From assembly GCA_964614955.1 (NCBI GenBank), contig CAZTNR010000001.1, positions 1 through 60,080 of the forward strand: a stretch of 60,080 nt of DNA, in the 5' to 3' direction. Source of the DNA: an uncultured Oscillospiraceae bacterium (GTDB lineage: Bacteria; Bacillota; Clostridia; Oscillospirales; CAG-382). The notes beneath the pieces are model-generated. The model saw only the letters and a list, made by a program, of their open reading frames with translations, searched no databases and was not told the DNA's origin. The position numbers and the translations under genes are program-made. Positions 34,777 through 50,336 of this stretch are shown here, piece after piece (the first letter of the stretch is position 1; every line of letters begins with the position of its first letter).

Positions 34777-34981
34777 AAAGTTTATTGTTTCGGTTTCGGG
34801 CATTATCTCGGGTATTGTTCTGATTGCTTCGGGAAATACAACAGAGGGTGTTACGGCTGTTATTGCTTCGGTTGTGGCGTACTTAATCGCCGAGGGCTAC
34901 ATAGATGCAAAGGCGGTTGACGTGCTTGACAATGTTGTTGAGGAAACAAAGGACAAGCTGGAGGGTAACACAGATGATTAG
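34745..34981 (+). CDS. Holin
   Basis: 78 aa. MKAFLKKLTSRKFIV followed by two TM helices and a charged tail. It lies directly upstream of the endolysin. Confidence 0.65.
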   Translation: MKAFLKKLTSRKFIVSVSGIISGIVLIASGNTTEGVTAVIASVVAYLIAEGYIDAKAVDVLDNVVEETKDKLEGNTDD

Positions 34982-35534
34982 TTGTTTTAAGGGTAAATTT
35001 AAAGTTACAAGTCCCAGAGGCTACAGAACCCTTGGCGGTGTTCGTCAGTACCACGGCGGGCTTGATTTAGTGGCTTTGGGCACTGACAAGGGTGTATACG
35101 CCATTGCCGACGGCAAGGTTGATGCGGTACCCTTCGAGGCAAACGGCTTTGGGTACTATGTAAGGCAGCTTCTTCCCGACGGCAGACGTATTTACTACGG
35201 GCATATGGCAAAGGGAAGCATTGTTGTAAAAGCAGGGCAGAGCATCAAGAAGGGCGACAAGCTGGGTATTATGGGTTCAACAGGTGCATCAACGGGTGCG
35301 CACACTCACATTGAGCTAAGAATACCGGGAACGTCGAAGACAAGTCTTGACATATCCGAATTCACAGGTATTCCCAACGCACAGGGTACTTATGAAATGG
35401 ATGAGCTTACAGCCGAGGAGGCAAAGGAAAACATCCGCAAGAAGTGCGGCTTTGAGGCTCAGACGATGGAATATCTTTCAAAATACAAATGGGCTGACGA
35501 TTTATTCCTGAAGCTTTGGAAGGCTATGGAATAA
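34974..35534 (+). CDS. M23-family peptidoglycan endopeptidase (endolysin)
   Basis: YHGGLD (HxxxD) and GAHTHIE (HxH). Confidence 0.8.
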   Translation: MISCFKGKFKVTSPRGYRTLGGVRQYHGGLDLVALGTDKGVYAIADGKVDAVPFEANGFGYYVRQLLPDGRRIYYGHMAKGSIVVKAGQSIKKGDKLGIMGSTGASTGAHTHIELRIPGTSKTSLDISEFTGIPNAQGTYEMDELTAEEAKENIRKKCGFEAQTMEYLSKYKWADDLFLKLWKAME

Positions 35535-35541
35535 AGCACAA

Positions 35542-35585
35542 AACACCTTACATTGTCCGATAACAGACGTGTAAGGTGTTTTATT
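35542..35585 (+). terminator. Strong intrinsic terminator after the lysis cassette
   Basis: 11-bp stem aacaccttaca/tgtaaggtgtt followed by ttttatt. Confidence 0.8.
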
Positions 35586-35618
35586 ATATGAGTATAAAAA
35601 CGAAACGGAGGTTTTATT

Positions 35619-37232
35619 ATGGCAAACAATAAATACGACCTTTACGGCGACATACAAGACCAGTATCAGCTCAAGGTCAATTACGATGATGCAAAAAAGA
35701 AAGGCGATGCAAAGGGCATGGAAGATGCCGCAAAAGCCGCTACGGCCGTAAGACAAAGAATGACCGACAATGGTTATGGTAACCTTGCAAAGCAATTTGA
35801 AGGCTACAACACGGCACAGATGGGAAATTACCTCAAGTATTATCCTACACAGGGCAAAAGCTCATTCAGAGACTATCTGAAGGGGTCTAAGCTTGTTACG
35901 GAATACGGCTACACCCCCGAGCAGATTGATAAAGCTATCGGCTGGAATAATGCGACCAAAGAAATTACGTTCAACGGAATGAATGTTGGTAAGGCAGACA
36001 CAATCGTTGATGGCACTTCGTATTTTGAAAACGGCTTTTTGGACGGCGTGATTGATAACATCATTACTCACGAAAGCCTTACTCCGAAAGTTTCTTCTAC
36101 GTCGAGTGAAAATATACAGAAGCTTCTCGGAATTCAGTTCAACGACAGAAACGAAAACGACGCAAAGCGTGACGAACTATGGTCCGAAGCCAAAGCCAAC
36201 CCTTTCGAAACGGATGTGGGAAAGGCTATTATGGCAGATTACAACCTTAAAGCCATGCAGGGCAGAGACAACGAGGCGGCAAGCGGTGCGGCATCAAACG
36301 GTGGAAACATCGATTCGTTCGCAGCAGCAAACGCGCTTAGGCAACAGGCGTCTCTTACGGCTAAGGGACAACAGCAGGCTATAGCGGCGCAGTCGGCGAG
36401 AATAAACGATTTAAGAGGCGTTCTTGGTGATATTGTGGGTACACAGCAGATTGAAAATCAGGGCACACTTGAAACAATCGATGCACAGGCGAATCTCGAA
36501 CAGAGAGATTTTGAAAACAAGGAAACAGAAAAGCTCAACGACCACGGTATCAATGTTGATATTGCAAATATTACAGGCTATGTTCCCGAAGACTGGTCTA
36601 TGTATTTCAACGACGACGGCACAGTTGCTCCTCAGAGTACTCTTGCGAGGGATGAGGTTGAAGCGGCGAACGCACTTGCAGACAAGCAGCTTGGTTATAA
36701 TCAGGTGTTGGGGCTTGCAGGACTCGAATCCGAAGAAAACATCGCGAAATTCAAGGCAACTTCGAGTGATAGTTCCGACAGCGGTTCGGGCTCGGAAAGC
36801 GGTATGACAGGCTCTCAGGCCACAACTGCACTCAAGAACGGCGAGGTAAACGAAACCGCGATTAAAGCCTACAACGATGCGTATGGCTCAAACTATACCG
36901 TAGACAACCCGCCTGCGATTGCGTACAGCAATTTGGACGACGGACAGAAACCAGACAGCGACGGTTCTGCGTGGGACGCCTGGTATGATGAATTTGAAAA
37001 CGAGAAGGTAAAAGGTTTTCTGACAAGTTACATCAAGCCGTATTACGACAGTTCTACTTTGCCCGACGCAGGAAAACTCAAAGATTTGATTTTGGAAAAA
37101 ACAGCAGATTACGACATCGGTGTCGAGGATGCAAGAAAGATTATGTCGGTATTTGGGCTCGATTCCACATGGCTCGAGGATTACCGAGACCGTTGGGGAT
37201 TTAATTCAAAAAAAGGTATGATTAAAAAGTAA
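35619..37232 (+). CDS. 537-aa hypothetical protein (possible internal virion or ejection protein)
   Basis: RBS acggagg. The central part is a Q/A-rich helical region. No family recognised. Confidence 0.6.
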   Translation: MANNKYDLYGDIQDQYQLKVNYDDAKKKGDAKGMEDAAKAATAVRQRMTDNGYGNLAKQFEGYNTAQMGNYLKYYPTQGKSSFRDYLKGSKLVTEYGYTPEQIDKAIGWNNATKEITFNGMNVGKADTIVDGTSYFENGFLDGVIDNIITHESLTPKVSSTSSENIQKLLGIQFNDRNENDAKRDELWSEAKANPFETDVGKAIMADYNLKAMQGRDNEAASGAASNGGNIDSFAAANALRQQASLTAKGQQQAIAAQSARINDLRGVLGDIVGTQQIENQGTLETIDAQANLEQRDFENKETEKLNDHGINVDIANITGYVPEDWSMYFNDDGTVAPQSTLARDEVEAANALADKQLGYNQVLGLAGLESEENIAKFKATSSDSSDSGSGSESGMTGSQATTALKNGEVNETAIKAYNDAYGSNYTVDNPPAIAYSNLDDGQKPDSDGSAWDAWYDEFENEKVKGFLTSYIKPYYDSSTLPDAGKLKDLILEKTADYDIGVEDARKIMSVFGLDSTWLEDYRDRWGFNSKKGMIKK

Positions 37233-37284
37233 GGTGCTGCTTAAGAAAACGAGCTATTTATAAACAACAGCAAGGAGAAGAAAA

Positions 37285-40200
37285 ATGGCATTTGTAAAAG
37301 CAAACAAAAACAACTCCGAAACAGAGAAAAATGGCGGCTTTGTAAGAACCACTTCTGGTGGTAGCTTTGTTAAGGCCGCAACAAGCGGAACGGCGACGAA
37401 GAACAACGGCAGAGAAAACGGCGAAACCAAGGTCGCTAACGGCAAAACTTATGATGCCGTAAAATCGCAGTATGATGCGGATAAATTCGGCAAAGGCAAT
37501 ATCGACCTTACTGCGCGCCCTATTTATAAAAACGCCGACGGCAAAATTTCTACTGTAAACAGTATGTCTATAAACGAGGATGGAAAAGAGGTTCTTATTC
37601 CTACTATCGTCAATGATAAAAACGGTAATGCGAAAATGCTTACCGAAAGAGAGGCTATAGAACACTACCACAACACCGGTGAATTTCTTGGCAAGTTCGA
37701 CACCGTTGACGAAGCCAATGAATACGCAAACGCTTTACACATTGACCAGGACATATATTATTCCAATTTGTACTATGGAAGTGAAGAAAACCGCGAAAAC
37801 GAGGTTAATGACGTTGGAAACACACGCCAACAGCCTTTAACGGCAGAAGATTACAAGAATTTTTCTGCTTACTTCAAGAAACAACTCGCCGAGTCTCTCC
37901 CTAAAAACAAAGGCGATTTTGACGGAAAGAAAGTACGCGAGCTGACGAAACAGTATGCAGCAGTTCAGGCGGCAATTTACGAAAATAACCTCAAGAACGG
38001 TTTTACAGGTACCACTCCTATCGGCGACAACATTGCAAATTTATACAAGGCGCACGGGTATGATTTTCAGAAGCTGTTTCCCGACCTTTACGATGCCTAT
38101 TCAACAGGCAATGTAGAGGCGTTTGCTTATCAGAACAGCGGCGAGTACAAGGTAAAGGTCGATGACAAGCGCAAAGCCGAAATTGATAAGGTTCTTTTCG
38201 ACCTTGGCAAAACCTTTGACGAACAAATAAAGACAGCCGAGGACGAACTTGCCGTTCTCGAGGAAAAGCAGTACGCAATGGGCGGCAAAACTTTAGCCCA
38301 CAACCCCTTCATAAGACCGACCGCTAACTACTCTGTCGAAGATATCACCAAGTGGAAAAACGAAGGTGTGGACTTCGGCGAAGAGATTGCTTCCAAGAAA
38401 GCAGAGATAGAATCAATCAAGGCATACTATACCTCTGTTTCCGAAGTGTTTAGGGCGAAGAGCCAGCCTGACTTTGAAGAAAAAAGCAAGTATGTTTTAG
38501 GCATAACACAAGACAAAGGAGAAAGCACAAACAGCTATTTGCCAAAAGGCTTCTACGAAAAAGTTGCCAGAGAACACAATAAAGACAAAAAAGACTTAAC
38601 ATTTTCAAACGAAGACGGATCTACATACACAGTTACTGTGGACAAGAACGGTTTAACAGACGATGAATATGGCACCCTGATGTATATTCTTAATACGCAG
38701 GGTGCAGAGGCGGCTGACAAATTCTATGAAGGAATTGCATTCAACAGAAACAGCAACATTGCACAAAGCGTTCACGATACCTTTCAGGAAACGGAAAAAG
38801 GCGGGCTGTTTCAAAAGATAGGTGCCGGCATTGGCGAAACGGCATACGCGCTCGCTTCCGGCGTTGAGGGCTTGATAACAGCCCCCATTAATATGGTTGC
38901 CGATATGACGGGAGTGGGGAGTGGATACTATGCTCCCTCTGTCAGCCAACAGGTAACCGCAAAGAACATCGAAAGCGCTGACGGACTCGGAAGAATTGGT
39001 CTTCAGGCAGTCCAGACTGCGCCTCAGATTGCAGGAGTCGTCGCCGCGGCGAAATTCGGTGGCCCTACTGCAGCCAACGCTTTTCTCGCTTATACGGCTT
39101 TCCCAAGTTCGTATGTGGACGCAAGAAACAGAGGTGCGAGTGAAGCGCAGGCGTTAAATAAGGCAGGACTTGACACGGCTCTCGAACTTGCTACAGAAAA
39201 GTTCCTCGGCAACACAATCGAGGGTTCAGGCACAACGTTCACCGGTTTAGTCGGTTCTGCTGTTAAAAAGACCGGCATTGGTGCGAAAGTGTTTGACTTT
39301 TTCAGCGACGTTGCTTCAAAGTATCCCAACATAGGCACGAGCTTGAGACTCGTGGGTAAGAGTAGCGGTAGCGGTATTTCGGAAATGGCGGAAGAATACA
39401 CGGCGTCGTTCTTTGCGCCTTACGTTGAGAATATCGTTTACGGCACAACAAAGAAGGCGGAGCTGTGGAACGAGGAAGAGAAAGAATCGTCTGCCGTTGG
39501 TTTTATCACGGGTTTAATCCTCGGAGAGGCGAGAAATGTCAATTTGTACAGCTATATCGCAAACGGAGACTATGGAGCGAGGATAGCCGAAATCTATTCT
39601 CTCTCTGATAAAGCTGTTACAGCCGACTATCTTAAAAACATAGATGTATCAACCCTTACCGAAATCGCAAGATATGAAAACGAAGGTTTCGATTCTCTTA
39701 CAGAGCAGGAACAGTCGGAAATGGTTGCAAGGGTTAGAAGCAGAATTGAAAGCGGAATTACTCCCGAGGAAGCACGAGCAGAACTTCTTGAAGAAGAAAC
39801 ACTTCGTGCCGCAATCTTCGGAATGGAAGACCTCGCAAAGCAAGGATACGCTTACGAAGAAGCTTCGAATAAACTTCGCAAGCAGGGCGTAGATGTTAAC
39901 AAGTACTCGGAATTTGCGAAGCAGGCATACGAGATAGGCGAGCAGAAAAAGCCTTTAATGCCCGAAATTCCTCCGGTTGCCGTTGAAATGGCAAGAGAAG
40001 GAAAGTCGTCAAGTGAAATTGCTGATACGCTTGTCAGTGCCGGCAAGGAAAGCAGCGTCGAGCGTGCAATTCGTGCAGCGAACGCGGCAAAGAACAAAGT
40101 GTTCTCGGAAACACTTATGCCCGAAATGACTGTAGTACAGAGACAGAAAGCGATGCAAGACCGTATCATTGCAGAAAATAAAGCAGAAGAAGAGTACTTT

Positions 40201-43200
40201 GCTGAGAAGTACAACAACACGATGTCTGAAGCAAAAGAAACTCTTGGAAATGGGTTTAATTACGCTTTTATTTCAGATGCCGTTAACAAGATATCAAGCA
40301 ATCTCCTCAAAAGCTTTGCAGAAGAAAACGGCACGCACATTTCGGCGGGACGGGTAAAAAACATCGTACTTGAAGCAATCGTAGCTCGCGGCGAAGTAAG
40401 CAAAGAAAACATTACAAAGCAGCTTGCCGACGCTTTTGCTATGAGTATGCCTGTTGCTTCGAAGACGTATCAGACTTTGGTATCGCCGGGAACTTCGGCA
40501 ACAGAGGCTCTTACAAATTATGCTCTAAGAGGTGAGATTTCTAACACCGTTGCTGACAAGGCTTCGCTTGAGGAGGCAGGAAAGCGTTTTAAGGCTATTT
40601 CGGATTCTGCGGCAACTCAGGTAGCGAATGCGAGAAAGCACTTATATGGCACATCTGCACTTGAAACAGTCACTGTACCTGCGGTCACAAACACAGAGTA
40701 CATAACCGCTGAAATGACAGATGCCGAAAGGTACGAGATTCTCAAGGACAAAAAAATAACATTAGCTAAAGCTAATGCCGAGTTATACAACAAATACTAC
40801 GAGCAGATGCCGCAGCTTCTTGAAGACAAGCTGAAAACAAAAGATGCCAAAAAGCTTATCAAAAAGATAGCAACCGATTTTGGAGTTTTTACCGAATACG
40901 AAAATAAAGATTTTGATATAAAGTTCGAGTTTGGCAGGAACAATCTTGATGAAAGCATAGGCAAGCAGAAAGGAAACTACGATTTATATGCGCAAATGCT
41001 TTCGTGCTTCTCTGATGTAATATCAAATGCTGTCGGAATAGAAGTTCACAATCGAAACAACGACGGCTATAAGGTTGACATGACTTTGAAAAACGTTTAT
41101 GTATTATGCAGCGCTTTTGAGAACGACACCGACATTGTGCCTGTAAAGCTATCCGTCAAGGAGTTTGTTGACAAAGAAAACAGGTTATACGTTGCTGTTG
41201 CGCTTGAAAGCATAAAAAAAGACAGGGTCGTAAGCATGGGTGTTCAGGATAACCTGACTCACGTCCGTACCTCGCCTGCCATTATCAGTATACGCGATAT
41301 TTTCAGAAATGTCAACCCTTTGGATGTAGATTTTCTTAAATACATTCCCGACGATTTTTTGAACGAAGAACAAATTGCGGCAAAAAACGGTGTCAATTCA
41401 GACTTGAAAAAGGCACCCGAAAGTGATACAATGATATCAGAGGTTGAAAATACTTCTTCAGAGACCGAAAACAAGGAAGATATCAGGACCCGATTCAACG
41501 AGTTAACAAACAAGCTCTCAAAAAAATACGGCGAAGGTGCCGTAAAGGAAGTTCTTATATTTTCCGCCGACGTTGCCGACGGTGCAGCTTCTGATGTGAG
41601 TGATATCGCAGGCAAAAGAATAAGCGGTAAAAAGCTGCTTCCTTCTTGCATTGAAGCAATGGCTGCCGACAACGACGCTGATGCTGCAGCTGCTATATCC
41701 GAAAGCTTTTCCGATATTTTCGTTTCTGCAAACATATCTGTGGAAATGGTACGCGGTGTTATTGACGAAGCAAGTGAAAGAATAGTTTCCAAGAGAGCTG
41801 AGCTTGAAGAAAAGAACGGCGTTCCTTCGGTCGGCGAAGGAAACGTTGAAGCAGAAACGGCAGAAAAAGCAGCAGAAAGTGTGCAGAACGTGTCTGAAAA
41901 TTCGTCGGACTCTGAGTTCGACGAATGGAAACCAGAAGCAAAGACAGATAAACGCACAAAGTTCGGTGAGAAAGCAAAGCCTGAGGATACTGTTTCCACG
42001 GTGTTTGATTTTGGTGATGGCATTGACGCGGATGCATTGGCTGTGTTTGAAAAGGATAAACATTCACAAAAGGAGATAAATAACGATGTCAATACGACAA
42101 AAAATAAAGAACAGAACAGAAATTTTGTCGAAAGCGAAGAAATCGGAAAAGATAATAATACTGGTGAGAGATTTGGCGTTTTACAAGCCTCAGAAACAGG
42201 CATTGAACTTCGCGATAGAAACACTGGATCTTTGGATACAGAAGCCGACAGAAGAACAGCTGACATCTCAGGAAACAGAGATGCTGAAGTCGGAGATATC
42301 AAGGATACAAAAAATGAAACCGGAAGACTTTTACGAAGAACTGAAGACCGTTCTTTAGAAGAAATCTGCGAATCAGAAAACTTCGTTAATCTTTCGCGGT
42401 TTATCGGAGATGAAATTTCCTCTGCCCAGTCAAAAGCGTTTATAGATGCTTACATAAACGGCGAACATGGTGAAAGCGAATTTGATTTGATGCAGCTTGT
42501 TGCATACGATGTCGTTTCCGATGAAAACAACAACTTGCGAGAAATCTTTTCGGACAACGTTGACGAGTATTTTCTTTATGATTCGCTTGATTCTACTCAG
42601 GACATAACCGGCAAGGCGGTGCCTGATGATGTACGTGAACGATTTAAGAACACGGTTGTAAAGAGCTCTAAAGGCAGTTTAATTCCCGTTTATCACGGAA
42701 CCGACAAATACTATCCGAATCTGAAACGAGGAGAAACAGGTATTCACTTTGGCAGCTATGCTCAAGCGGCAAACAGGGCAAAAGACAAAGGGTTTGATAC
42801 GCCATATTTTGTCAAAGCGTACTTAAATATCACGAATCCTGTAATAATAGAAGATGACTTTTTCAACTGGAACGCACCCCAACTTGCTCACGCTTTGAGC
42901 CGCACCGGTGTAATTACGGCAGACGAAGCTGTGAAATATTTTGAATCAGCGAAACTCGAAAGCATTGAAAAAGCTAACGAGGACATAGTACAAAAGTTAA
43001 AAGAACTTGGGTATGACGGCATAATCTATCAAAACGCTGTTGAGGCTGTAAACGGAAAGTCATACATAGTGTTTGATGAAAGTCAAATTTTCAGGCTCGA
43101 CGGCGACGATAACTCTACGAACAAGGAGAACACAGAAAATGGCAGAGAGCAGACAGGAATACCGGGTACAGAAAGCGAAGGACATACCGGAGGAAATGTA

Positions 43201-46200
43201 TCAGCTCTAAAAACAGACCCAAGACAAGGAACTGAAAATTCCGAACTTCTCTCTTCAAAAAACGGCATTGTTACCTTAAAGAAGCCAAAGGGGTACGAAA
43301 GTGCGTTTAAAAAATCCGAGCGAATAATCGTAGGGAAGGAACATATAACCAACGGCTTTGTAGGAATCCGCAAGTCTTTGGTCGATACAGAAAAAGTTAA
43401 GACCTACGCAAACAAGAAGTGGTCGAACGTTTCAGAAAATAACGAGTTTGACTTGACAAAGCATTTTACCGAGGGTGCAAACTTAATGATTACGGGAGAC
43501 CCGAAAGTAATAGAAGTACCCAGGGTAGCTCGTGCGTATTCGTTCAAAATTGACGGCGGTTATTATATTTATAATCAACAATTTGTCGACGCCTTTGCCA
43601 AAGACGGAAATACGTTCTGGGTGAATCCCGAAAAGCCGAACAGTGCAATGGGTATAAAGAACGCTGACGGTGAAAGCATTGGTCTTATAATGCCCATACG
43701 TTCGTCATCAAAGAATGATGCTTCTCTTGCCGAACAAACCGCCAAGAGACACAACGAAGCAAAATACGCAAGTGAGGTTCTTGAAGAAAAGAGACAAGAA
43801 AAGGCTTCAAAGAAGGAAACTGCAGAGTTTTCTTATTCGTTGGATGATTCGGAAAGCGATTTGACGCAACGACACTTTTCGCCATCAGAGAAGGTAGTGC
43901 AGGCTTTTGCCGATTCGATTGACAAGTGGCTTTCCGGCAATATGAAGTCAAACGAATACTTTGAACTCGGCGAACCCCCCACGGTTCTCAAAGAACTTGG
44001 TGCAAAGGACTTGCCCGTGATAATGTCTCAGGATGTTATTGTTAAAATAACAGGTGAAAAGCACAGCATAAGTCTTGATGAAATTAAGAGACTACCCGAA
44101 GCGATACACGACCCGATTATGGTATTCAGCTCGGCAACCGTTCCGAATGCTTTTGTGCTTATAACCGAGCTTACAGACAAAAGCGGTAACGATGTTGTTG
44201 TAGCGTTGCATCTCAATAAAAAGCAAGACAGACTTTCTGTAAATCGAATCGCAAGCGTTTACGGCAAGGGCAATGTTGCAAATTTCGTCGAAGCTCAGTC
44301 GGAACTTGGAAATCTGCGATATGTTGACAAAGAAAAAAGTCAGCAATGGTCTACGAGCAGAGGGCTCCAATTGCCCAAGCTGGTTCAGTCCATTACTGAC
44401 AATGACAGTATACTACAAAAAGAGGATATTGTCAATAGTATTTTATTCGAGAACGGCGAAAAAGATTCAGGAAATATTCAGAAGAATGTTGCCGAAACAG
44501 ACAATGAGTATCTTGAGGCTGTCGAAAGCGGTGACGTGGAAAAGGCTCAGAGGATGGTTGATGAAGCGGCGAGAACGGCGGGATACAATTCTCCTTTGCT
44601 TTATCACGGAACAAGTGCTTTTGGCTTTACCGAGTTTGATTTATCGAAGGCGGACGACGGCAGAACTATCTTTTTGACAAGCAGTGAGGAGATTGCTTCT
44701 ACTTATTCGGGCGTAGACGGAAAAAGAAAAGTTTCTGATATATACACTGAAAAAGTTGAAAACATGTCCGTTCCTGAGCTTGCTAATGCCCTTAACGAAG
44801 TTACAGAAAAATACGGAGCATCTGAGGATGGTGACAAGAACCGCTATTCATATTATGACTATGGGAAAGTAAATCGTCTTATAAGCCAAGTTAACACCGG
44901 GCTTGAGGAATTGAGACCGACGATTGACGGCAAAATAAGCGAATATGCCGAAAGAATGTCCGAGGATTTCAACGACAAAGATGCGAAGGTTCACAAACAG
45001 CTTGTCGAACTCAAGGAAAAGCTTGACAAGTGGGAATACGACAAATTATCTACTCCCATTTACATGTTACTGCACCACACCGATGTTTTCTCGGGCAGTG
45101 CAAATGTGAAGAAGGTCGCCGAACTCGAAAAGAACATACGCATTATGAACAGAGTGAGGTCGAGCAAAAGCCTCGACGAAGGTGTAATTGTAAGCGAATC
45201 ATTAGGCGGATATTACACAAATACTTTGAGCAGAGATGTGGCAATCAGGCAACTACGTTCACTTATCAGCAAAGGTAACTATTCATTATATGCAAAGTTA
45301 GTTAAGCCATTAACAATCGATGCACACGGAGAATTATGGAACTCAATATACGGTTGGTCCGACGACATGGTTCCCAAAGCCGACAGCGTAGAGGTTACAA
45401 AAGAAGGCAACGAATACCGTTTGAAGGACAAGGAAACAGGAAAGTTTGTTGAGGATGCCGTAATTGATGTGAACGATGTTACTTCATCAATGACCGACGA
45501 GGAACGCAAGACTTTTATTCTTAACAAGATTCGTGACATGTGGTCCATAAGAACCGAAAACATCAAATCAACAAGAGGAATTGCAAAATATGCAAAAGAA
45601 CATGGATATGGAAGCGTTATCATCAAGAATCTTGTTGACAACGGCGGAAACAACAGCCGCGTTGATATGGACACAAAGGCGGACATTTACATTCTGTTTG
45701 ACTCGAACAACGCAAAATCCGCCGACCCCGTTACCTACGACGATGACGGAAATGTTATTCCTTTGTCAGAGAGGTTTAATCCCGAGAAGAATGATATAAG
45801 GTACTCAATAGAAGGACAGACTTCTATTTATGAAAACGAAAGCGAGGCAGAACATGAAAGAAACAGTATATACGATGGAAGCGAACGACGGAACGCTGGT
45901 GAGAGTTCCGGCAAGCAGGATGAACGCTTGGTTGAAGGAACAGGAGAAACAAGCGAAGTCTCGGCAGAAGAAAGACGAAGATACTCAGAAGCCTTAACGG
46001 ATGAGCAGATCGAGAAAAAAACATTTAAAGATTCATCGGGACGAGCCGTAAAGGCTGACTTAATCAAAAAATCGGCTTGGAACGACGATATGCGCAGTCT
46101 TGCGGAAGCTTATGCGAATAAGGGTATTGAGGTTGCTTTTACAAAAGGCAGCATCAAACTCGGTTTTGCGTTTGGCAGAACGGCGAGAGCTATGCATATG

Positions 46201-49200
46201 AATGGACGCTTGGTAATTTCATACGATAACGCGCTTTACTCTCCACAGACACTTGCAAAACACGAATATGTTCACGAGGTGTTTGATAGCACAGAGGTGC
46301 GTAAAGCCGTTGAAAACATACGCAGTACGATGTCAGACTCAGAATATCAGTCAGCCATAATGGCATACAAAGCCAAGTACAGAGGAATTACAAGCAACGA
46401 AGCCGATTTACAGCAAGAGCTTTATTGCGACATTCTTGCAGGCATTTATGAAAATTATGCCGTATTTCAAGATGTCATTAACTCTTTTTGGACAAACGAT
46501 CTCGGCGGTGTTGACAGATTTAAGGTTTCAGAATATGATAATACAATGGACGCAGGGGGCAAAACGATTGTTTCCGCGAGCAAGGAGGCTAACGGCAATG
46601 GGCAATCAGAAGGAACCAATTTATTACTTGAAAGGTCCGGATGGAGAGGTTCATCGAGTTCCGAAGAGCAAAAAGAAAATCTTTTTGGAAGAAGCGGAAC
46701 GAATCATGAAAGAATGTTTGAGGAAAGAAAAAGAACAGCCAAAGAAATAAAAAGCAAAAGCGGATATGTTCACAAGGTAGCAGAAGATACGCACTTATAT
46801 TTGATAAAAGAATCTTCTTTCAACGAAGAAATGTCTGATATTGTAAAGTTCGTTAACGACTACGGGCATACATGCAACATTCTTTTGATTGATGCATATG
46901 ACGACGAAGGCGATCATGGTCCGGCGTTTATTGGGTATGACGACGAAATATATGTGTCATATACTAACCAATACTCACCATGGAAACTCGCAAGGCACGA
47001 AATCGTCCATACGGTTTACAACACGAAAGAGTTCGAACCGTTTAAACGGGGCATAAGAAATCGCTTTACCGAAGAGATGTTCGGCATGGCGCTGGCTGAA
47101 CCGAGATATGCGCTTGCTTTGAAGACATATTTAAAAGACGAGGATGCGCTATTTCAAGAAATTGTGTGTGACATCTTTGCCGGTGCTGCACCAGAGAATC
47201 TTTCTGAAGGTTTTGACGATTTGATTAGGCTTTTCTGGAATAGCAATGTTGGAAAAACCAAACGCAATACCAAATGGTTTAACGAACTTCTAAATGACGA
47301 AAACTTCAGGTTCTCCCTCGACGACGACGGCAACTACGACTTCGGCGACATATGGCGTGAGCTTGTTGATGAATACGGTGCGATACCAACGGGTGAAAAG
47401 CCTGCAAGGGATATAGATGTGCCGAAAAAGATTGATGAAAGGCGAGTTGTCAGTCGTTTTGCGAGGACTATGATGGAAGCGGGTGTTACTTCTGACCACG
47501 TTATGTCTGAGTTCGAGGAGAGAATTCTTGACGGTACTATGACGCACCTCGTGATAACAAATGAAGCCGCGAGAAGCTCTGCTCAGAAACAGATTGAATA
47601 TGAGGGCTTTAAAGGTGCGCTCACAAAGTGGAATAATCTCGTAGACGAGGACGTCGTAGGTAAGAAGCAGCTTGTGTTTGGTATGGAGCTATATAATCAG
47701 TGCATAACAAACGGCGATGTTGCAAGCGCTATGAAGATAGCTGCAGACCTTACGGCTATGGCAACCAGCGCCGGTCAAACGCTTCAGGCTTGCAGAGTGT
47801 TAAAGCTTATGTCTCCCGACGGTCAACTTTACTATCTTGAAAAGTCTGTTGACAAGATGAACAAAGAGTTCAGGAAGAAGATAGGCAAAAAATTCAAAGA
47901 CATAGAGCTTGACGAGAATCTTATGAAAGAGTTTTTGCAGGCTCGGGACGAAGAAGCGAAAAACGAGGCATATGACAAGATTTGCCAGAGTATCGCAGAC
48001 CAAATTCCGTCCACGTTCCGCGACAAGTGGGATTCTTGGAGATATCTTGCGATGCTTGGCAATCCGAGGACTCATATCAAGAACTTTGTCGGCAACGCCG
48101 TATTTGTTCCTGCGATTCGTATTAAAAATATGGTCGGCGCTATTGGCGAAAGAGCTTTTAGAGTAAACAAGGAAGAACGCACAAGGTCCTTCTACAAAAC
48201 CGGGGAATCAAAGGATTTTGCGAAAGCGGATTTCGAGAAAATGAAGAAAACGCTTCAGGGTGAAAACTCGAAGTATGCAACAACAAGCGACATCGAATCG
48301 CGGCGCACAATTTTCAAGAGCAAACTCCTTGAAACTCTCAGAAGAAAGAATTTCGATTTCCTTGAAGCTGAAGATATGGCATTTCTCAAGTTGCACTACG
48401 TTGATGCTCTTGCAAGGGTAATAACGGCAAGAGGAATAGATGTTAATAACGTTGACCCCGAAACACTTGACAAGATTCGACTGTTTGCGGTACGTCAGGC
48501 ACAGGAAGCAACGTACAGAGACGCAAATGCTCTCGCAGAGGAGCTTAACCGAATTGAGCGAGCAATGAAAACGAGCGACAAGAAGGCGGTCAGAGCCGCA
48601 AGCGTCTTGGTTGAAGGCGTGATGCCGTTTAAGAAGACACCGCTCAACATTGCAAAACAAGGCATTCTTTATTCTCCTGTGAGCATTTTAACGGGCATTT
48701 CCAAGACCGTTAAAGTAGTTAAGCGAAATGGTGATGTATCTGTCACAGAAGCGATTGACGATCTTGCAAAAGGTCTTACAGGTACAGGTCTTATGCTTCT
48801 CGGATATTTTCTCGCAAGGCACGATCTTCTTTCGGGTCCGGACGATGAAGACGAAAAGAAGAGCCGCTTTGACGAAATGGTCGGCGAACAATCTTATTCT
48901 TTCAACGTTGGCGGCCATTCATACACAATTGACTGGATGACACCTTCGAGTATGCCGTTGTTTGTTGGTTGCGAGCTATTTAACTTGACAAAGGACAAGT
49001 TTACATTCTCTGACATAACAGCTGCGTTATCTTCGATGACAGACCCGGTGTTCGAACTTTCTGTTCTATCAGGCATAAGCAACCTATTCAACGGTGTTAT
49101 GTACGGCGAAGGAAGTGCTGCATTTAATGCTGTATGGGATATGACGACAAGCTACTTTACCCAAGCGTTACCCACAATCGGCGGTCAGGTGTCAAGACTT

Positions 49201-49731
49201 CTCGATGACAACAAGCGGGAGTACTATTATACAGACAAAAACAGTCAGCTTCCGTCGAGTTTGCAACGGCTTATCGGTCAGGTTTCAAGCAAGATACCGT
49301 TTGTTAGTTATCTTTTTGAACCTTCTATTGACGATTGGGGCAGAGAAGAAAGCTACGGCGGCATCGTAGAAAGAACGCTTGAAAATGTGGTTTCGCCCGG
49401 GTACTATTCGAAAGAGGCATATACGAGAGTTGACGACGAACTTGCGAAATTGTACAGAAAGACAGGCGACAATTCTGTGTTCCCGACTAAGGTTCAGAAG
49501 TATTATGTTTCGGATGGTGTTTATTACCATATGAACGCTGAGGATTATACTGAGGTGAAGAAACGTAGGGGCAAGCTGAGTTTCAAGCTCGTGAAGGAAC
49601 TTATTGGCAGTTCGAATTACAAAGCAATGAGCGACGAAGAAAAAATAAAAGCTATTTCTAAATGTTATCGCGAAGCAGGGGAGACTGTAAAAGGTGAAAT
49701 GCTTGAAAAAATAAAACGTCACAGCAAATAA
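37285..49731 (+). CDS. Giant 4148-aa polyvalent protein (ART-like x2, zincin HExxH x2, hydrophobic/TM modules)
   Basis: An uninterrupted 12,447-nt ORF with RBS aaggagaag. Motifs are detailed in the findings. Confidence 0.9.
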   Translation: MAFVKANKNNSETEKNGGFVRTTSGGSFVKAATSGTATKNNGRENGETKVANGKTYDAVKSQYDADKFGKGNIDLTARPIYKNADGKISTVNSMSINEDGKEVLIPTIVNDKNGNAKMLTEREAIEHYHNTGEFLGKFDTVDEANEYANALHIDQDIYYSNLYYGSEENRENEVNDVGNTRQQPLTAEDYKNFSAYFKKQLAESLPKNKGDFDGKKVRELTKQYAAVQAAIYENNLKNGFTGTTPIGDNIANLYKAHGYDFQKLFPDLYDAYSTGNVEAFAYQNSGEYKVKVDDKRKAEIDKVLFDLGKTFDEQIKTAEDELAVLEEKQYAMGGKTLAHNPFIRPTANYSVEDITKWKNEGVDFGEEIASKKAEIESIKAYYTSVSEVFRAKSQPDFEEKSKYVLGITQDKGESTNSYLPKGFYEKVAREHNKDKKDLTFSNEDGSTYTVTVDKNGLTDDEYGTLMYILNTQGAEAADKFYEGIAFNRNSNIAQSVHDTFQETEKGGLFQKIGAGIGETAYALASGVEGLITAPINMVADMTGVGSGYYAPSVSQQVTAKNIESADGLGRIGLQAVQTAPQIAGVVAAAKFGGPTAANAFLAYTAFPSSYVDARNRGASEAQALNKAGLDTALELATEKFLGNTIEGSGTTFTGLVGSAVKKTGIGAKVFDFFSDVASKYPNIGTSLRLVGKSSGSGISEMAEEYTASFFAPYVENIVYGTTKKAELWNEEEKESSAVGFITGLILGEARNVNLYSYIANGDYGARIAEIYSLSDKAVTADYLKNIDVSTLTEIARYENEGFDSLTEQEQSEMVARVRSRIESGITPEEARAELLEEETLRAAIFGMEDLAKQGYAYEEASNKLRKQGVDVNKYSEFAKQAYEIGEQKKPLMPEIPPVAVEMAREGKSSSEIADTLVSAGKESSVERAIRAANAAKNKVFSETLMPEMTVVQRQKAMQDRIIAENKAEEEYFAEKYNNTMSEAKETLGNGFNYAFISDAVNKISSNLLKSFAEENGTHISAGRVKNIVLEAIVARGEVSKENITKQLADAFAMSMPVASKTYQTLVSPGTSATEALTNYALRGEISNTVADKASLEEAGKRFKAISDSAATQVANARKHLYGTSALETVTVPAVTNTEYITAEMTDAERYEILKDKKITLAKANAELYNKYYEQMPQLLEDKLKTKDAKKLIKKIATDFGVFTEYENKDFDIKFEFGRNNLDESIGKQKGNYDLYAQMLSCFSDVISNAVGIEVHNRNNDGYKVDMTLKNVYVLCSAFENDTDIVPVKLSVKEFVDKENRLYVAVALESIKKDRVVSMGVQDNLTHVRTSPAIISIRDIFRNVNPLDVDFLKYIPDDFLNEEQIAAKNGVNSDLKKAPESDTMISEVENTSSETENKEDIRTRFNELTNKLSKKYGEGAVKEVLIFSADVADGAASDVSDIAGKRISGKKLLPSCIEAMAADNDADAAAAISESFSDIFVSANISVEMVRGVIDEASERIVSKRAELEEKNGVPSVGEGNVEAETAEKAAESVQNVSENSSDSEFDEWKPEAKTDKRTKFGEKAKPEDTVSTVFDFGDGIDADALAVFEKDKHSQKEINNDVNTTKNKEQNRNFVESEEIGKDNNTGERFGVLQASETGIELRDRNTGSLDTEADRRTADISGNRDAEVGDIKDTKNETGRLLRRTEDRSLEEICESENFVNLSRFIGDEISSAQSKAFIDAYINGEHGESEFDLMQLVAYDVVSDENNNLREIFSDNVDEYFLYDSLDSTQDITGKAVPDDVRERFKNTVVKSSKGSLIPVYHGTDKYYPNLKRGETGIHFGSYAQAANRAKDKGFDTPYFVKAYLNITNPVIIEDDFFNWNAPQLAHALSRTGVITADEAVKYFESAKLESIEKANEDIVQKLKELGYDGIIYQNAVEAVNGKSYIVFDESQIFRLDGDDNSTNKENTENGREQTGIPGTESEGHTGGNVSALKTDPRQGTENSELLSSKNGIVTLKKPKGYESAFKKSERIIVGKEHITNGFVGIRKSLVDTEKVKTYANKKWSNVSENNEFDLTKHFTEGANLMITGDPKVIEVPRVARAYSFKIDGGYYIYNQQFVDAFAKDGNTFWVNPEKPNSAMGIKNADGESIGLIMPIRSSSKNDASLAEQTAKRHNEAKYASEVLEEKRQEKASKKETAEFSYSLDDSESDLTQRHFSPSEKVVQAFADSIDKWLSGNMKSNEYFELGEPPTVLKELGAKDLPVIMSQDVIVKITGEKHSISLDEIKRLPEAIHDPIMVFSSATVPNAFVLITELTDKSGNDVVVALHLNKKQDRLSVNRIASVYGKGNVANFVEAQSELGNLRYVDKEKSQQWSTSRGLQLPKLVQSITDNDSILQKEDIVNSILFENGEKDSGNIQKNVAETDNEYLEAVESGDVEKAQRMVDEAARTAGYNSPLLYHGTSAFGFTEFDLSKADDGRTIFLTSSEEIASTYSGVDGKRKVSDIYTEKVENMSVPELANALNEVTEKYGASEDGDKNRYSYYDYGKVNRLISQVNTGLEELRPTIDGKISEYAERMSEDFNDKDAKVHKQLVELKEKLDKWEYDKLSTPIYMLLHHTDVFSGSANVKKVAELEKNIRIMNRVRSSKSLDEGVIVSESLGGYYTNTLSRDVAIRQLRSLISKGNYSLYAKLVKPLTIDAHGELWNSIYGWSDDMVPKADSVEVTKEGNEYRLKDKETGKFVEDAVIDVNDVTSSMTDEERKTFILNKIRDMWSIRTENIKSTRGIAKYAKEHGYGSVIIKNLVDNGGNNSRVDMDTKADIYILFDSNNAKSADPVTYDDDGNVIPLSERFNPEKNDIRYSIEGQTSIYENESEAEHERNSIYDGSERRNAGESSGKQDERLVEGTGETSEVSAEERRRYSEALTDEQIEKKTFKDSSGRAVKADLIKKSAWNDDMRSLAEAYANKGIEVAFTKGSIKLGFAFGRTARAMHMNGRLVISYDNALYSPQTLAKHEYVHEVFDSTEVRKAVENIRSTMSDSEYQSAIMAYKAKYRGITSNEADLQQELYCDILAGIYENYAVFQDVINSFWTNDLGGVDRFKVSEYDNTMDAGGKTIVSASKEANGNGQSEGTNLLLERSGWRGSSSSEEQKENLFGRSGTNHERMFEERKRTAKEIKSKSGYVHKVAEDTHLYLIKESSFNEEMSDIVKFVNDYGHTCNILLIDAYDDEGDHGPAFIGYDDEIYVSYTNQYSPWKLARHEIVHTVYNTKEFEPFKRGIRNRFTEEMFGMALAEPRYALALKTYLKDEDALFQEIVCDIFAGAAPENLSEGFDDLIRLFWNSNVGKTKRNTKWFNELLNDENFRFSLDDDGNYDFGDIWRELVDEYGAIPTGEKPARDIDVPKKIDERRVVSRFARTMMEAGVTSDHVMSEFEERILDGTMTHLVITNEAARSSAQKQIEYEGFKGALTKWNNLVDEDVVGKKQLVFGMELYNQCITNGDVASAMKIAADLTAMATSAGQTLQACRVLKLMSPDGQLYYLEKSVDKMNKEFRKKIGKKFKDIELDENLMKEFLQARDEEAKNEAYDKICQSIADQIPSTFRDKWDSWRYLAMLGNPRTHIKNFVGNAVFVPAIRIKNMVGAIGERAFRVNKEERTRSFYKTGESKDFAKADFEKMKKTLQGENSKYATTSDIESRRTIFKSKLLETLRRKNFDFLEAEDMAFLKLHYVDALARVITARGIDVNNVDPETLDKIRLFAVRQAQEATYRDANALAEELNRIERAMKTSDKKAVRAASVLVEGVMPFKKTPLNIAKQGILYSPVSILTGISKTVKVVKRNGDVSVTEAIDDLAKGLTGTGLMLLGYFLARHDLLSGPDDEDEKKSRFDEMVGEQSYSFNVGGHSYTIDWMTPSSMPLFVGCELFNLTKDKFTFSDITAALSSMTDPVFELSVLSGISNLFNGVMYGEGSAAFNAVWDMTTSYFTQALPTIGGQVSRLLDDNKREYYYTDKNSQLPSSLQRLIGQVSSKIPFVSYLFEPSIDDWGREESYGGIVERTLENVVSPGYYSKEAYTRVDDELAKLYRKTGDNSVFPTKVQKYYVSDGVYYHMNAEDYTEVKKRRGKLSFKLVKELIGSSNYKAMSDEEKIKAISKCYREAGETVKGEMLEKIKRHSK

Positions 49732-49737
49732 AATTAA

Positions 49738-49767
49738 ATCCGCATCAGAAATGGTGCGGATCTTTTT
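49738..49767 (+). terminator. Intrinsic terminator after the giant gene
   Basis: atccgca/tgcggat stem followed by cttttt. Confidence 0.75.
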
Positions 49768-49852: not shown

Positions 49853-50131
49853 ATGAGAGGAAAATTTAGAGAGCGATTGCAGGAAATGCACATCAAGTAT
49901 ATGAGCGAATACTTTAAAAGAATCAGAAAAGAGAAGGGGTTGACACAAGAGAAAATGGCGGAACTTCTTCGCATTGACACGCGTTCATATCAAATGTATG
50001 AAAACGGCAGCGGGTTATGTGGGTTTTCAACCTTTGTAATCTTGCTTTTCGAAATTTGTCCGGACAAAGGGAAACTATTAAAAGACTTGTACGATATCAT
50101 AATCGAGGTTTGGACCAATGAAGCGGCGTGA
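49853..50131 (+). CDS. XRE-like HTH protein, paralogue of 50325-50591
   Basis: YFKRIRKEKGLTQEKMAELLRIDTRSYQMYENG. Confidence 0.7.
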   Translation: MRGKFRERLQEMHIKYMSEYFKRIRKEKGLTQEKMAELLRIDTRSYQMYENGSGLCGFSTFVILLFEICPDKGKLLKDLYDIIIEVWTNEAA

Positions 50132-50336
50132 TGAGAGCGTAGAAGAAAGGCTCTCATACAGAGAGCCTCGAAAAATTGAAGAGATACATATTATGAAGAA
50201 CGGCGACGAATATGCTATTTGTCCGAGATGCAAGAATTTCTTTGATATAGAATATCAGCCGTTTTGCAGCGGGTGCGGTCAAGCCATAGATTGGGGGCAT
50301 CCCAAAGAGGCTAAGAAAGTCAAATTATTTTCCTAA
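50118..50336 (+). CDS. Small zinc-ribbon protein
   Basis: CPRCKN ... CSGCGQ. Confidence 0.55.
   Translation: MKRRDESVEERLSYREPRKIEEIHIMKNGDEYAICPRCKNFFDIEYQPFCSGCGQAIDWGHPKEAKKVKLFS

Follow-up and report, generated by a model that had tools for sequence, protein, structure and literature searches.

A single gene occupies 24.6% of a 50.6-kb prophage in the analyzed window, the whole stretch of 60,080 nt from an uncultured Oscillospiraceae bacterium. The question raised by this locus is what a temperate phage makes of a 4148-aa product encoded behind its lysis genes. The reading considered most probable, at about 75%, is that of a phage-type polyvalent protein on an internal-virion (ejection) chassis, whose cargo is delivered at infection.

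The prophage is podovirus-like and integrated at tRNA-Pro(TGG) (50770–50845, minus strand), with a 23-bp direct repeat, TGGTCGAGGTGACAGGACTCGAA, marking both limits: attL at 166–188 and the second copy, attR, at 50770–50792, at the 3' end of the tRNA gene. The integrase gene lies near attL (364–1395, minus strand). Besides TerL, MCP and a P22/SU10-like portal, the late region encodes a tail fibre (30370–33150, plus strand) and an ORF that resembles internal virion proteins. An M23 peptidase (34905–35534, plus strand) fills the endolysin slot, which in relatives holds NlpC/P60 or Amidase_3, and stands immediately 5' of the two-ORF unit that contains the giant gene. TerL, portal, MCP, fibre and lysin are all located upstream of the giant ORF and on the same strand. 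No tape measure was found in this late region, as the initial annotation had suspected. A megablast search of 20 kb against phages returned no match.

Behind the lysin gene lies a stable hairpin (35540–35582, plus strand; dG −20.5 kcal/mol, z −5.8), initially read as a strong terminator closing the lysis cassette. Its stability is upheld but its U-tail is interrupted (UUUUAUUAU), and the element is best described as terminator-like or attenuator-like. The position of such a hairpin between the lysis genes and the unit implies that the unit could be regulated apart from the late operon. The first ORF (35619–37232, plus strand; 537 aa, hydrophilic, Q/A-rich) is preceded by a GGAGG ribosome-binding site (35607–35611, 7 nt before ATG). 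The giant ORF (37285–49731, plus strand; 4148 aa, 462.9 kDa, pI 5.05) is the last late gene; its AAGGAG site lies at 37272–37277, again 7 nt before ATG, and it is closed by an intrinsic terminator (49738–49761, plus strand; 10-bp stem, dG −15.5, z −4.3) followed by the T-rich tail CTTTTTCT. The earlier description of an uninterrupted frame with a good ribosome-binding site, its own terminator and a preceding 537-aa ORF holds in every detail. The slot upstream of the giant gene is conserved by position, with homologues of the 537-aa ORF itself limited to the closest relatives (L001, L090, L094 and L096). Its membership in the main upstream-partner family was rejected on comparison, and it matches no PADLOC defence model.

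This arrangement would also suit a moron: the two genes might specify a prophage-expressed, cell-associated toxin, superinfection-exclusion or abortive-infection factor instead of virion cargo. The att-proximal placement between a terminator-like hairpin and the unit's own terminator is typical of morons, and a weak promoter-like site (35560–35587) overlaps the post-lysin hairpin. The gene order in relatives speaks against this: lysin, partner ORF and giant gene follow one another with gaps of a few nucleotides (median 12 nt between partner and giant gene), which points to late co-transcription. The giant protein also lacks a signal peptide and a secretion domain and matches none of the PADLOC defence models, all of which counts against a moron. 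The position as last late gene is the family norm.

A different concern is that the long frame might be an artefact or pseudogene, produced by misassembly or by fusion of neighbouring genes. L001, the closest of the long relatives, shows the gene as a pair of overlapping ORFs that differ in frame, but this break coincides with a 100-N scaffold gap, and a genuine gene split was rejected. The family is present on at least 479 IMG/VR contigs; of 80 loci fetched, 72 carry complete uninterrupted ORFs, and 52 further complete ORFs in bacterial genomes bring the total to 124 (695–4218 aa). Interruption of the ORF in independent assemblies, named initially as a refuting observation, is not seen in these 124 viral and bacterial sequences. 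The representative library is likewise rich in relatives of 3–4.3 kaa, and the ribosome-binding site and terminator of the giant ORF are in place. The frame is considered real, since a 12.4-kb open frame is beyond chance and the 124 complete relatives are also uninterrupted; an artefact is thus extremely improbable. Nor is the size, singled out at first as exceptional, unusual for the family: there are relatives of 4218 and 4308 aa, and the one in Massiliimalia timonensis Marseille-P3753 measures at least 4144 aa. The exact 4148-aa protein is absent from the assembly index.

Domain searches recover several distinct families in the product, in agreement with the mosaic of unrelated modules first proposed: a ~95-aa domain, a Gly-rich module, LPD3, two ART-PolyVal domains, MuF_C, two HExxH...E domains and a C-terminal module of ~800 aa. 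Approximately 2000 residues (1–62, 161–460, 781–1130, 1409–1780) have neither relatives nor an assignable function. NCBIfam gives no match for the giant protein, and its sole PHROGs match, phrog_616, covers the MuF_C region. Pfam searches reveal no SLT or lysozyme domain anywhere in the protein and no N-terminal MuF domain (Phage_Mu_F), MuF_C alone being present.

The chassis is recognized primarily in the C-terminal all-alpha module (residues 3340–4148; 47302–49728, plus strand), which bears the WRYLAMLGNPRTH and PFKKTPxNI...YSP motifs. In HHalign comparisons its profile aligns over ~700 columns with nine core proteins encoded at the gp16 position of T7-like cyanopodoviruses (99.0%, E 4.3e-18 in local mode; 99.8%, E 3.6e-27 in global mode), the reversed-sequence control giving E 0.7. 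A Foldseek search against BFVD retrieves the same cyanopodovirus proteins (E 1e-10 to 1e-12), along with numerous phage proteins labelled PolyVal (E as low as 4e-56). Profile and model comparisons thus establish homology between the last ~800 aa and the internal core protein at the gp16 position (Syn5 gp45, P-SSP7 gp16), a relationship that is new here. In Syn5, the virion core is formed by gp43, gp44 and gp45 (PMC5850374). Homology to virion core proteins is a further argument against a moron.

A link between the C-terminal module and T7 gp16 is unsupported by profiles: HHalign gives E 0.25 against T7 gp16 alone and E 0.34 against a six-member T7-like alignment, with the reversed control no worse, and the T7 gp16 chain is not among the Foldseek PDB matches of the module. 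A remote link may exist, given that Hardies 2016 needed joined HMM sets. Against the PDB, the profile sequence search gave no match for the module and Foldseek of its model no significant one, and tblastn against 50,697 GenBank phage records yielded no match at E 1e-5. None of the Pfam models covers the ~800-aa module; its identification as LPD38 was rejected, LPD38 being absent from the giant protein and unrelated to the module.

At the opposite end of the protein, a mobile ~95-aa alpha/beta domain (residues 63–165; 37471–37779, plus strand) is defined by the motif GNIDL...RP...DGSISTV...GKEVLIPT...LGKF and is modelled by AF2 with pLDDT values of 88–97. It is also found in the gp16-position (third) DNA-transfer protein of a P22-like Aeromonas phage and in SPN1S_0017, a large minor structural protein of the epsilon15-like phage SPN1S. 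The conserved N-terminal module noted earlier is therefore shared with DNA-transfer and minor structural proteins of podoviruses and, together with the C-terminal homology, bears out the proposed fusion of effector domains with ejection-type modules. It is followed by a Gly/Ala-rich, moderately hydrophobic helical module (residues 461–780; 38665–39624, plus strand), which belongs to the family core, is present in 57 of the 80 viral relatives and is modelled by AF2 with low confidence. The membrane segments once assigned to the protein are not supported: in the Gly-rich and C-terminal modules, Kyte–Doolittle 19-residue maxima do not exceed 1.2, and transmembrane helices were rejected on hydropathy. 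The Gly-rich hydrophobic segments survive as a real, helical module with no canonical transmembrane helix, and the C-terminal module survives likewise. The next recognizable part (residues 1131–1408; 40675–41508, plus strand) contains LPD3 at 1186–1302, scored by Pfam just below threshold (24–26 bits, precisely 24.4–25.6, vs a cut-off of 27); this region recurs in several relatives. PDB sequence searches with the N-terminal domain, the Gly-rich module and residues 1990–2195 gave no match, and Foldseek of the N-terminal model against the PDB gave nothing significant.

The N-terminal domain also occurs in proteins of 800–1350 aa that bear an SLT, CHAP, amidase or lysozyme domain, lysozyme-bearing virion proteins among them, and this association with peptidoglycan hydrolases would be compatible with an ejection protein of purely structural function. 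The chassis would then form the conduit, while the enzyme-like domains would assist envelope penetration or be decaying, with the zincins acting as wall endopeptidases, the N-terminal domain as a wall-binding unit, and no effector reaching the cytoplasm. Lytic domains in T7 gp16 and other internal virion proteins point in the same direction.

The zincin-like part comprises two tandem domains, as initially annotated: domain 1 (residues 2925–3100; 46057–46584, plus strand) with HEYVH at 2993, a module of the family core, and domain 2 (residues 3165–3335; 46777–47289, plus strand) with HEIVH at 3238. The two are paralogues (27% identity, E 1e-14), and the H, E, H and Y residues plus a downstream E are invariant in both copies and in all relatives. 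Neither is matched by the Pfam zincins, MPTase-PolyVal included, at E up to 1, and no known peptidase family was matched. A PDB sequence search with the pair and its profile, and a word-indexed homology search of the region, gave no match either. On sequence grounds, the HExxH...E domains, with their putative ligands, are an unannotated family. The place of this domain in the family core, and not among the variable cargo, favours the structural alternative, as does the wall-degrading role proposed by the phi24B authors for the metallopeptidase of their protein.

The central domains are of a different kind. The first ART-PolyVal (residues 1781–1945; 42625–43119, plus strand; match 1796–1941) scores 48 bits, the cut-off being 31.2 (E 3e-12), and carries His1804 in YHGT and Asp1931 in IVFD. 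The second (residues 2425–2850; 44557–45834, plus strand) is split by a ~300-aa insert; at 28 bits it remains below the Pfam cut-off, but relatives of it exist and it keeps the YHGT and FD motifs, with His2441 and Asp2806. Its two halves also co-occur in L001, L063 and L079. The reading of at least two ART-like domains is accordingly sustained, and the catalytic H and D of the H-Y-D clade are intact in both, which counts against decaying or merely structural domains. Between the two ARTs lie a conserved domain common only to relative L001 (residues 1990–2195; 43252–43869, plus strand) and MuF_C (residues 2196–2400; 43870–44484, plus strand), the latter with a Pfam match at 2254–2354 of 104.7 bits against a cut-off of 27.6 (E 3e-30). 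MuF_C is treated as a PBECR RNase by Iyer 2017 (PMC5512222), so the possible RNase-toxin-like domain of the initial annotation becomes a predicted RNase.

The distribution of these domains across the family separates core from cargo. The C-terminal module defines a family of 19,532 clusters (50% identity) from phages of gut Clostridia, in which it is the C-terminal part of proteins typically of 1.8–4.3 kaa that carry shuffled polyvalent cargo. The conserved core consists of this module as universal anchor, the Gly-rich helical module and the HExxH...E domain. Between them, core/cargo mapping places ART-PolyVal, MuF_C/PBECR RNase, LPD3, DdrB-ParB, PBECR5, methylase-helicase and Zeta toxin domains, which are inserted, duplicated and reordered among relatives; the domain shuffling for which homologues were to be surveyed is evident as variable cargo on a conserved core. 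Such rapid shuffling on a stable chassis is more in line with an arms race than with a structural function, and the ART-PolyVal, PBECR RNase, DdrB-ParB and methylase-helicase cargo has cytoplasmic substrates; a purely structural ejection protein is consequently judged unlikely. ART, RNase and Zeta-toxin domains are known from toxins too, which would again fit a moron, as would one homologue, P0049, a chromosomal gene that lacks phage neighbours within 10 kb. MuF_C, ART-PolyVal and LPD domains, on the other hand, typify proteins that enter the cell along with the DNA (PMC5512222), and the analogous phi24B protein is found in virions; a moron is regarded as quite unlikely.

The polyvalent reading can be compared directly with the published definition: at least two distinct conflict or effector domains in one polypeptide, usually of more than 2000 aa (Iyer 2017, PMC5512222). 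Here several such domains reside in 4148 aa, MuF_C and ART-PolyVal score above curated thresholds, and the gene is a late prophage gene, in support of the polyvalent interpretation first put forward. The resemblance extends to the domain repertoire in one huge polypeptide (H-Y-D ART-PolyVal, MuF-C/PBECR, LPD3, a putative metallopeptidase), to the portal/terminase prophage setting and to extensive shuffling among orthologues. In contrast to the described polyvalent proteins, the anchor is the C-terminal module and not MuF-N, a portal fusion, DarA/DarB or N4 RNAP; half of the giant protein matches no described LPD, and its HExxH domains fit no Pfam model, including MPTase-PolyVal.

With Syn5 gp45, P-SSP7 gp16 and S-CBP3 SYPG_00039, the giant protein shares the ~700-column profile homology including the signature motifs, the all-alpha prediction, the C-terminal location of the module and a podovirus context. 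Those proteins measure 870–1415 aa, lack polyvalent cargo and belong to lytic phages of Gram-negative cyanobacteria, whereas in the present case the module forms the end of a 4148-aa protein from a temperate phage with a Clostridia host. The cyanophage gene lies between the tail tube and fibre genes, directly upstream of the fibre, while the giant gene is located downstream of fibre and lysin, outside the tail/core block. In concept, the giant protein also matches the IVP-D proteins (N4 gp50 vRNAP, H66 gp60; PMC4819975), whose homologues host cytoplasm-destined domains, N4 vRNAP included; epsilon15 gp17 is also an IVP-D homologue (Hardies 2016, PMC4819975). These too are large helical internal virion proteins with a conserved C-terminal part (N4 gp50 has ~3500 aa). 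Unlike them, the giant protein has no detectable T7 gp16 similarity, lytic transglycosylase or RNA polymerase, and it carries several effectors in a row where they carry one enzyme.

For the Stx phage phi24B, gp47 (2811 aa) is a polyvalent protein that mass spectrometry has detected in virions, and a function in ejection has been proposed for it (bioRxiv 10.64898/2026.04.10.717836). It is likewise the giant polyvalent protein of a temperate podovirus, encoded by the last gene at the far prophage end behind a ~420-aa ORF, and its MuF_C is 39% identical to that of the giant protein. The placement behind the lysin at the prophage end, initially thought remarkable, is consequently both a family norm and paralleled elsewhere. 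The two proteins are otherwise unrelated: gp47, from a phage of a Gram-negative host, contains LPD5, LPD1 and LPD38 but lacks ART and the C-terminal module, and of its LPD5-LPD1-MuF_C-LPD38 architecture only MuF_C is held in common. P22 gp7, gp20 and gp16 and T4 Alt, an injected ART, likewise travel in the phage head and enter the cell with the DNA; they differ in being separate, small, single-function proteins, with Alt in the R-S-E ART clade. The concept as such is already known from Iyer 2017, Hardies 2016, N4 vRNAP and phi24B gp47.

Taking the polyvalent ejection protein as the preferred reading, we infer packaging, ejection and self-cleavage of the giant protein, its entry alongside the DNA and a counter-defence function. 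The protein would be made late, with a few copies packaged inside the capsid of the short-tailed virion, and would be expelled through portal and tail ahead of or together with the DNA. The chassis may help to build or extend a conduit across the wall and membrane of the monoderm Clostridia host. Once the cargo is in the cytoplasm, the two ARTs could ADP-ribosylate host proteins and the MuF_C RNase could cut host RNA, so that defence would be blunted, or the cell taken over, ahead of all phage gene expression. Cleavage of the polyprotein into functional pieces would be the most likely task of the twin zincin-like domains, in keeping with the self-processing role attributed to metallopeptidases of polyvalent proteins (PMC5512222); alternatively, they may cleave wall or host proteins.

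These findings connect polyvalent proteins with the cargo-bearing internal core/ejection proteins of podoviruses, two concepts hitherto considered apart from each other. As one unannotated ~800-aa module anchors ~19,500 clusters, this would be among the commonest ways in which phages of gut Clostridia package pre-made effectors. Annotation pipelines now call these 2–4-kaa proteins hypothetical; the C-terminal module, the ~95-aa N-terminal domain and the HExxH...E domain each merit a family model of their own, and the variable cargo slots constitute a natural catalogue of candidate anti-defence enzymes. Some carriers belong to species in culture (Massiliimalia timonensis, Dielma fastidiosa including strain JC13, Yeguia hominis, Pseudoflavonifractor and Anaerofilum hominis), which makes the packing and threading of a 463-kDa protein through the portal, its self-cleavage and the host targets of the ARTs testable. 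More tentatively, and with the odds against it, the Gly-rich module, a minimal gluzincin and the Syn5-gp45-like C-terminal module might constitute a general plug-and-play protein-injection platform of short-tailed phages that infect monoderm gut Clostridia, in which one polypeptide of up to 4300 residues builds its path through wall and membrane and, by means of its novel zincin domains, cuts itself into phage-specific effectors. If so, the family would be the phage counterpart of polymorphic toxin systems, and the ejection-protein paradigm, so far drawn from phages of Gram-negative hosts, would extend to Gram-positive ones.

The window holds a complete prophage of 50.6 kb, bounded by a 23-bp direct repeat (TGGTCGAGGTGACAGGACTCGAA) at 166-188 and 50770-50792, the second copy forming the 3' terminus of a tRNA-Pro gene. 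The integrase gene (364-1395, minus strand) is of the tyrosine type, and the host genes to the right specify an asparagine synthase, a GH38 mannosidase, an SLH-domain protein and PEPCK. The plus-strand phage genes include a large terminase, a P22/SU10-type portal, a major capsid protein, an internal-virion-protein-like ORF and a 926-aa tail fibre. Because genes for a tape measure (which already seemed to be lacking in the initial annotation), sheath and tail tube are absent from the prophage, a short-tailed virion is likely on gene content. A 539-aa ORF at 26141-27760 has a match to PHROG 511, a family of internal virion proteins (E 5e-13), and the phage may therefore encode further ejection-protein candidates besides the giant protein.

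The M23 peptidase gene (34905-35534, plus strand) occupies the lysin position and is followed on its 3' side by a hairpin at 35540-35582, previously read as a strong terminator; it is stable (dG -20.5 kcal/mol, z -5.8), but its U-tail is interrupted. Next come the 537-aa ORF (35619-37232, plus strand, GGAGG ribosome-binding site) and the giant ORF (37285-49731, plus strand), which has an AAGGAG site 7 nt before its start, occupies 24.6% of the 50.6-kb element and is closed by a clean plus-strand terminator at 49738-49761. The 537-aa ORF and the uninterrupted giant frame with its own signals had thus been described correctly. The encoded protein has 4148 residues (462.9 kDa, pI 5.05). Between this terminator and attR, the prophage ends in a small cassette (49853-50591) of accessory or regulatory type, with an HTH_19/HTH_3 protein (49853-50131), a short frame with paired CxxC motifs that was read by eye from near 50193 (approximate coordinates, outside the ORF calls) and a minus-strand ORF of 88 aa (50325-50591).

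A Pfam search of the giant protein matched three families: MuF_C at residues 2254-2354 (E 3e-30), ART-PolyVal at 1796-1941 (48 bits, cut-off 31.2) and LPD3 at 1186-1302, slightly under the cut-off. A second ART-PolyVal copy is interrupted by an insert of ~300 residues; its halves (~2430-2500 and ~2790-2845) are found together in three relatives, and with it the proposal of at least two ART-like domains holds. ART-PolyVal belongs to the H-Y-D clade (Iyer 2017, PMC5512222), and both copies keep the strand-1 His of YHGT (H1804, H2441) and the strand-5 Asp (D1931, D2806). MuF-C is treated as a PBECR domain, predicted to be a BECR-fold RNase (Iyer 2017, PMC5512222), and is probably what gave rise to the earlier impression of an "RNase-toxin-like" domain. 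The two HExxH segments, HEYVH (2993) and HEIVH (3238), are genuine tandem paralogues (27% identity, E 1e-14). Two His, one Glu, one Tyr and a further Glu ~50 residues downstream are invariant in the alignment with relatives, a pattern that by sequence is that of a small gluzincin; neither Pfam nor PDB yielded a relative of these domains. The module at residues 461-780 is Gly/Ala-rich, moderately hydrophobic and helical, with low AlphaFold confidence. Hydropathy lends no support to a canonical transmembrane helix anywhere in the protein, and the membrane segments ascribed to it are accordingly dropped. For ~2000 residues (1-62, 161-460, 781-1130, 1409-1780) relatives were not detected.

The conserved N-terminal module seen initially corresponds to a highly conserved domain of ~95 aa at residues 63-160 (pLDDT 88-97; residues 63-165 are encoded by 37471-37779, plus strand), with the motif GNIDL..RP..N.DGSISTVRS.S...GKEVLIPTV...LS..EAI..Y..TG..LGKF.T...A..YAE.LH. 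It has no Pfam or PDB match, and its relatives lie in phage virion proteins. By tblastn it matches the third "DNA transfer protein" (gp16 position) of a P22-like Aeromonas phage, a minor structural protein (937 aa) of SPN1S, an epsilon15-like phage, and an "IVP-C-like" Klebsiella phage protein; epsilon15 gp17 is listed as an IVP-D homologue (Hardies 2016, PMC4819975). In metagenomic proteins of 800-1350 aa the domain varies in position, occurs once in tandem (protein P0087) and accompanies SLT, CHAP, Amidase_2, tail lysozyme, GH108 or VanY domains; its spread takes in phages of both Proteobacteria and Firmicutes. This company of structural and DNA-transfer proteins and peptidoglycan hydrolases therefore identifies it, at the level of sequence, as a mobile element of proteins that lie inside the virion or penetrate the wall, and a family of virion-internal proteins not described before seems to be in view.

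The key part of the protein is the C-terminal module (residues 3340-4148). Used as a query, it retrieved 74 metagenomic proteins (27-66% identity), whose upstream parts vary between LPD3, ART-PolyVal, MuF_C, Zeta toxin, PBECR3 and DUF3990. Its AlphaFold model, built from a 29-sequence alignment, is largely helical (pLDDT 79). Foldseek found no match in the PDB; in BFVD the model matches pieces of many giant proteins of uncultured phages (E down to 4e-56), labelled PolyVal ART, LPD3, MuF-C or nuclease, and more remotely podovirus proteins (Synechococcus, Prochlorococcus and Pelagibacter phages) named "internal virion proteins", at E 1e-10 to 1e-12. Nine cyanophage proteins, including P-SSP7 gp16 and Syn5 gp45, were taken for comparison. 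Eight of the nine are annotated as internal core or internal virion proteins in the fetched records, the S-CBP3 protein being hypothetical in HQ633062 and an internal core protein in KC310803, and in seven of eight fetched neighbourhoods the next gene is an annotated tail fibre or lies in tail-fibre position. Profile-profile alignment over ~700 columns gave 99.0% probability locally (E 4.3e-18) and 99.8% globally (E 3.6e-27), pairing WRYLAMLGNPRTHIRN with RYNS.LS..AT.VKA..GN and PFKKTPxNI..YSP with F.F.RTG.N....Y.P; with the target alignment reversed, the match was lost (E 0.7). Since the profile includes Syn5 gp45, and gp43/44/45 form the internal core of Syn5 (PMC5850374), the module is by sequence homologous to a protein that experiment has recognised as belonging to an internal core. 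Neither the C-terminal profile nor the cyanophage profile showed a link to T7 gp16. The cyanopodovirus proteins (L168-L176) show no detectable profile similarity to the T7-like gp16 set (L177-L182; HHalign E 0.5), and the P-SSP7 record gives the gp16 name "by synteny and size"; such groups have been bridged only with joined HMM sets (Hardies 2016, PMC4819975). The module is not covered by Pfam, PHROGs or NCBIfam, and tblastn does not find it in 50,697 GenBank phage records. Parts of it may correspond to an LPD of Iyer 2017 for which Pfam has no entry.

An exhaustive profile search with this module returned 19,532 representative clusters at E ≤1e-3 and 7,484 at E ≤1e-30, and most of the best matches measure 1.8-4.3 kaa and carry the module C-terminally (longest 4308 aa). 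It occurs on at least 479 IMG/VR contigs; 80 loci fetched from these contain 72 complete ORFs of 1101-4218 aa (median ~2450), species-representative genomes contain 52 complete ORFs of 695-3472 aa, and cultured Massiliimalia timonensis carries one of at least 4144 aa. The size that had seemed exceptional is therefore ordinary within the family. A word-indexed database returned no protein longer than ~1475 aa, though longer relatives exist. The possibility that the giant ORF is an assembly artefact is excluded: the sole apparent break among relatives, that of the close relative L001, falls on a scaffold gap of 100 N (L001 9857-9956), so interruption in independent assemblies, foreseen as a refutation, does not count against the ORF and a true split of that gene is rejected. 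The same gap made the gene caller split or drop the L001 orthologue, and metagenome annotation probably often breaks up or overlooks giant genes of this kind.

Iterated HMM searches over the 80 viral loci placed the C-terminal module in all 80, the Gly-rich module in 57, the HExxH domain in 44-48, ART-PolyVal in 16 and MuF_C in 14, the N-terminal domain and LPD3 region being only sporadic. Module order varies: MuF_C precedes ART in locus L137, the zincin precedes an ART fragment in L094, and the zincin, near residue 700-900 in most relatives, is duplicated immediately before the C-terminal module in the window's protein. The 13 largest relatives carry ART-PolyVal (7), DdrB-ParB (4), PBECR5 (3), MuF_C, and a DarB-like methylase with an SNF2 helicase. 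The survey of homologues thus reveals domain shuffling, and by sequence the family combines a stable chassis with exchangeable cargo. A purely structural role for the giant protein is disfavoured by this turnover and by the direction of the cargo towards the cytoplasm.

The placement behind the lysis genes is likewise unexceptional, as relatives share the order lysin, partner ORF, giant gene, lysogeny module or integrase. The lysin slot itself is exchanged (M23 in the window, 34905-35534; NlpC/P60 in L001, 1-140; Amidase_3 in the relative L002, 8191-8790). A partner ORF is present in 110 of 117 loci (212-1463 aa, mostly ~250-530 aa), and lies a median of 12 nt ahead of the giant gene. Partner ORFs form at least two families without detectable relationship, 101 of 115 upstream ORFs (loci L008-L167 plus the window) falling in one; the 537-aa ORF belongs to a separate five-member group common to the closest relatives. 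In Stx phage phi24B, as here, a giant gene (2807 aa) is last in the prophage, after a 421-aa ORF, and its product was found in virions by mass spectrometry and proposed to be an ejection protein (bioRxiv 10.64898/2026.04.10.717836). MuF_C (39% identity) is, however, the only shared domain; the phi24B LPD38 is unrelated to the C-terminal module, and their equivalence is rejected. At L003 8245-13804 (ENA scaffold MERR22-1_SAMEA4766018-S001_METAG-scaffold_322), a 526-aa ORF and a 1267-aa protein with the module are chromosomal, flanked by MMPL/SecDF-like and SbcCD-like genes of a bacterium, and the surrounding 10 kb contain no phage genes; this copy may be an orphan remnant or domesticated. One chromosomal orphan, together with the hairpin and terminator flanking the unit, suggests a factor that the lysogen expresses, acting as a moron or in exclusion, but the homology to core proteins, the tight late-operon spacing in relatives and the lack of secretion signals and defence-model matches disfavour this explanation.

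Collectively, the anchor homologous to internal core proteins, the polyvalent domains with intact catalytic residues, the late-gene position and the chassis-and-cargo pattern support the initial interpretation as a polyvalent protein with effector domains fused to an ejection-type module; the feature is real and was correctly read. The giant protein would be a late product of which each capsid takes up a few copies. At five copies the load would amount to ~2.3 MDa, similar to that of the P22 ejection proteins, which is estimated at ~2.5 MDa from 12 copies of gp7, 12 of gp16 and 30 of gp20. The portal would be the exit route and the chassis would help to form the conduit, and the ARTs and RNase would act in the cytoplasm ahead of phage gene expression. 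The zincins may process the polyprotein, as argued for MPTase domains (Iyer 2017, PMC5512222), or alternatively attack the wall or host proteins. Refolding is described for ejection proteins (2022 review), and the poorly modelled helical Gly-rich module is weakly suggestive of such behaviour.

The kind of protein is already known: polyvalent proteins have been described (Iyer 2017, PMC5512222), IVP-D homologues host cytoplasm-destined domains, with N4 vRNAP as a C-terminally anchored case (Hardies 2016, PMC4819975), and phi24B gp47 is a further example; neither size nor gene position stands out within the family. The features that appear to be new are the specific anchor, a Syn5-gp45-type module, the scale of the family and two further family modules without annotation (the HExxH...E domain and the Gly-rich one). 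[quoted passage not shown] The hosts also appear to be new, as the family occurs in phages of gut Clostridia (Oscillospiraceae, Acutalibacteraceae, Ructibacterium, Pseudoflavonifractor, Yeguia, Anaerofilum, Dielma, Erysipelotrichaceae).
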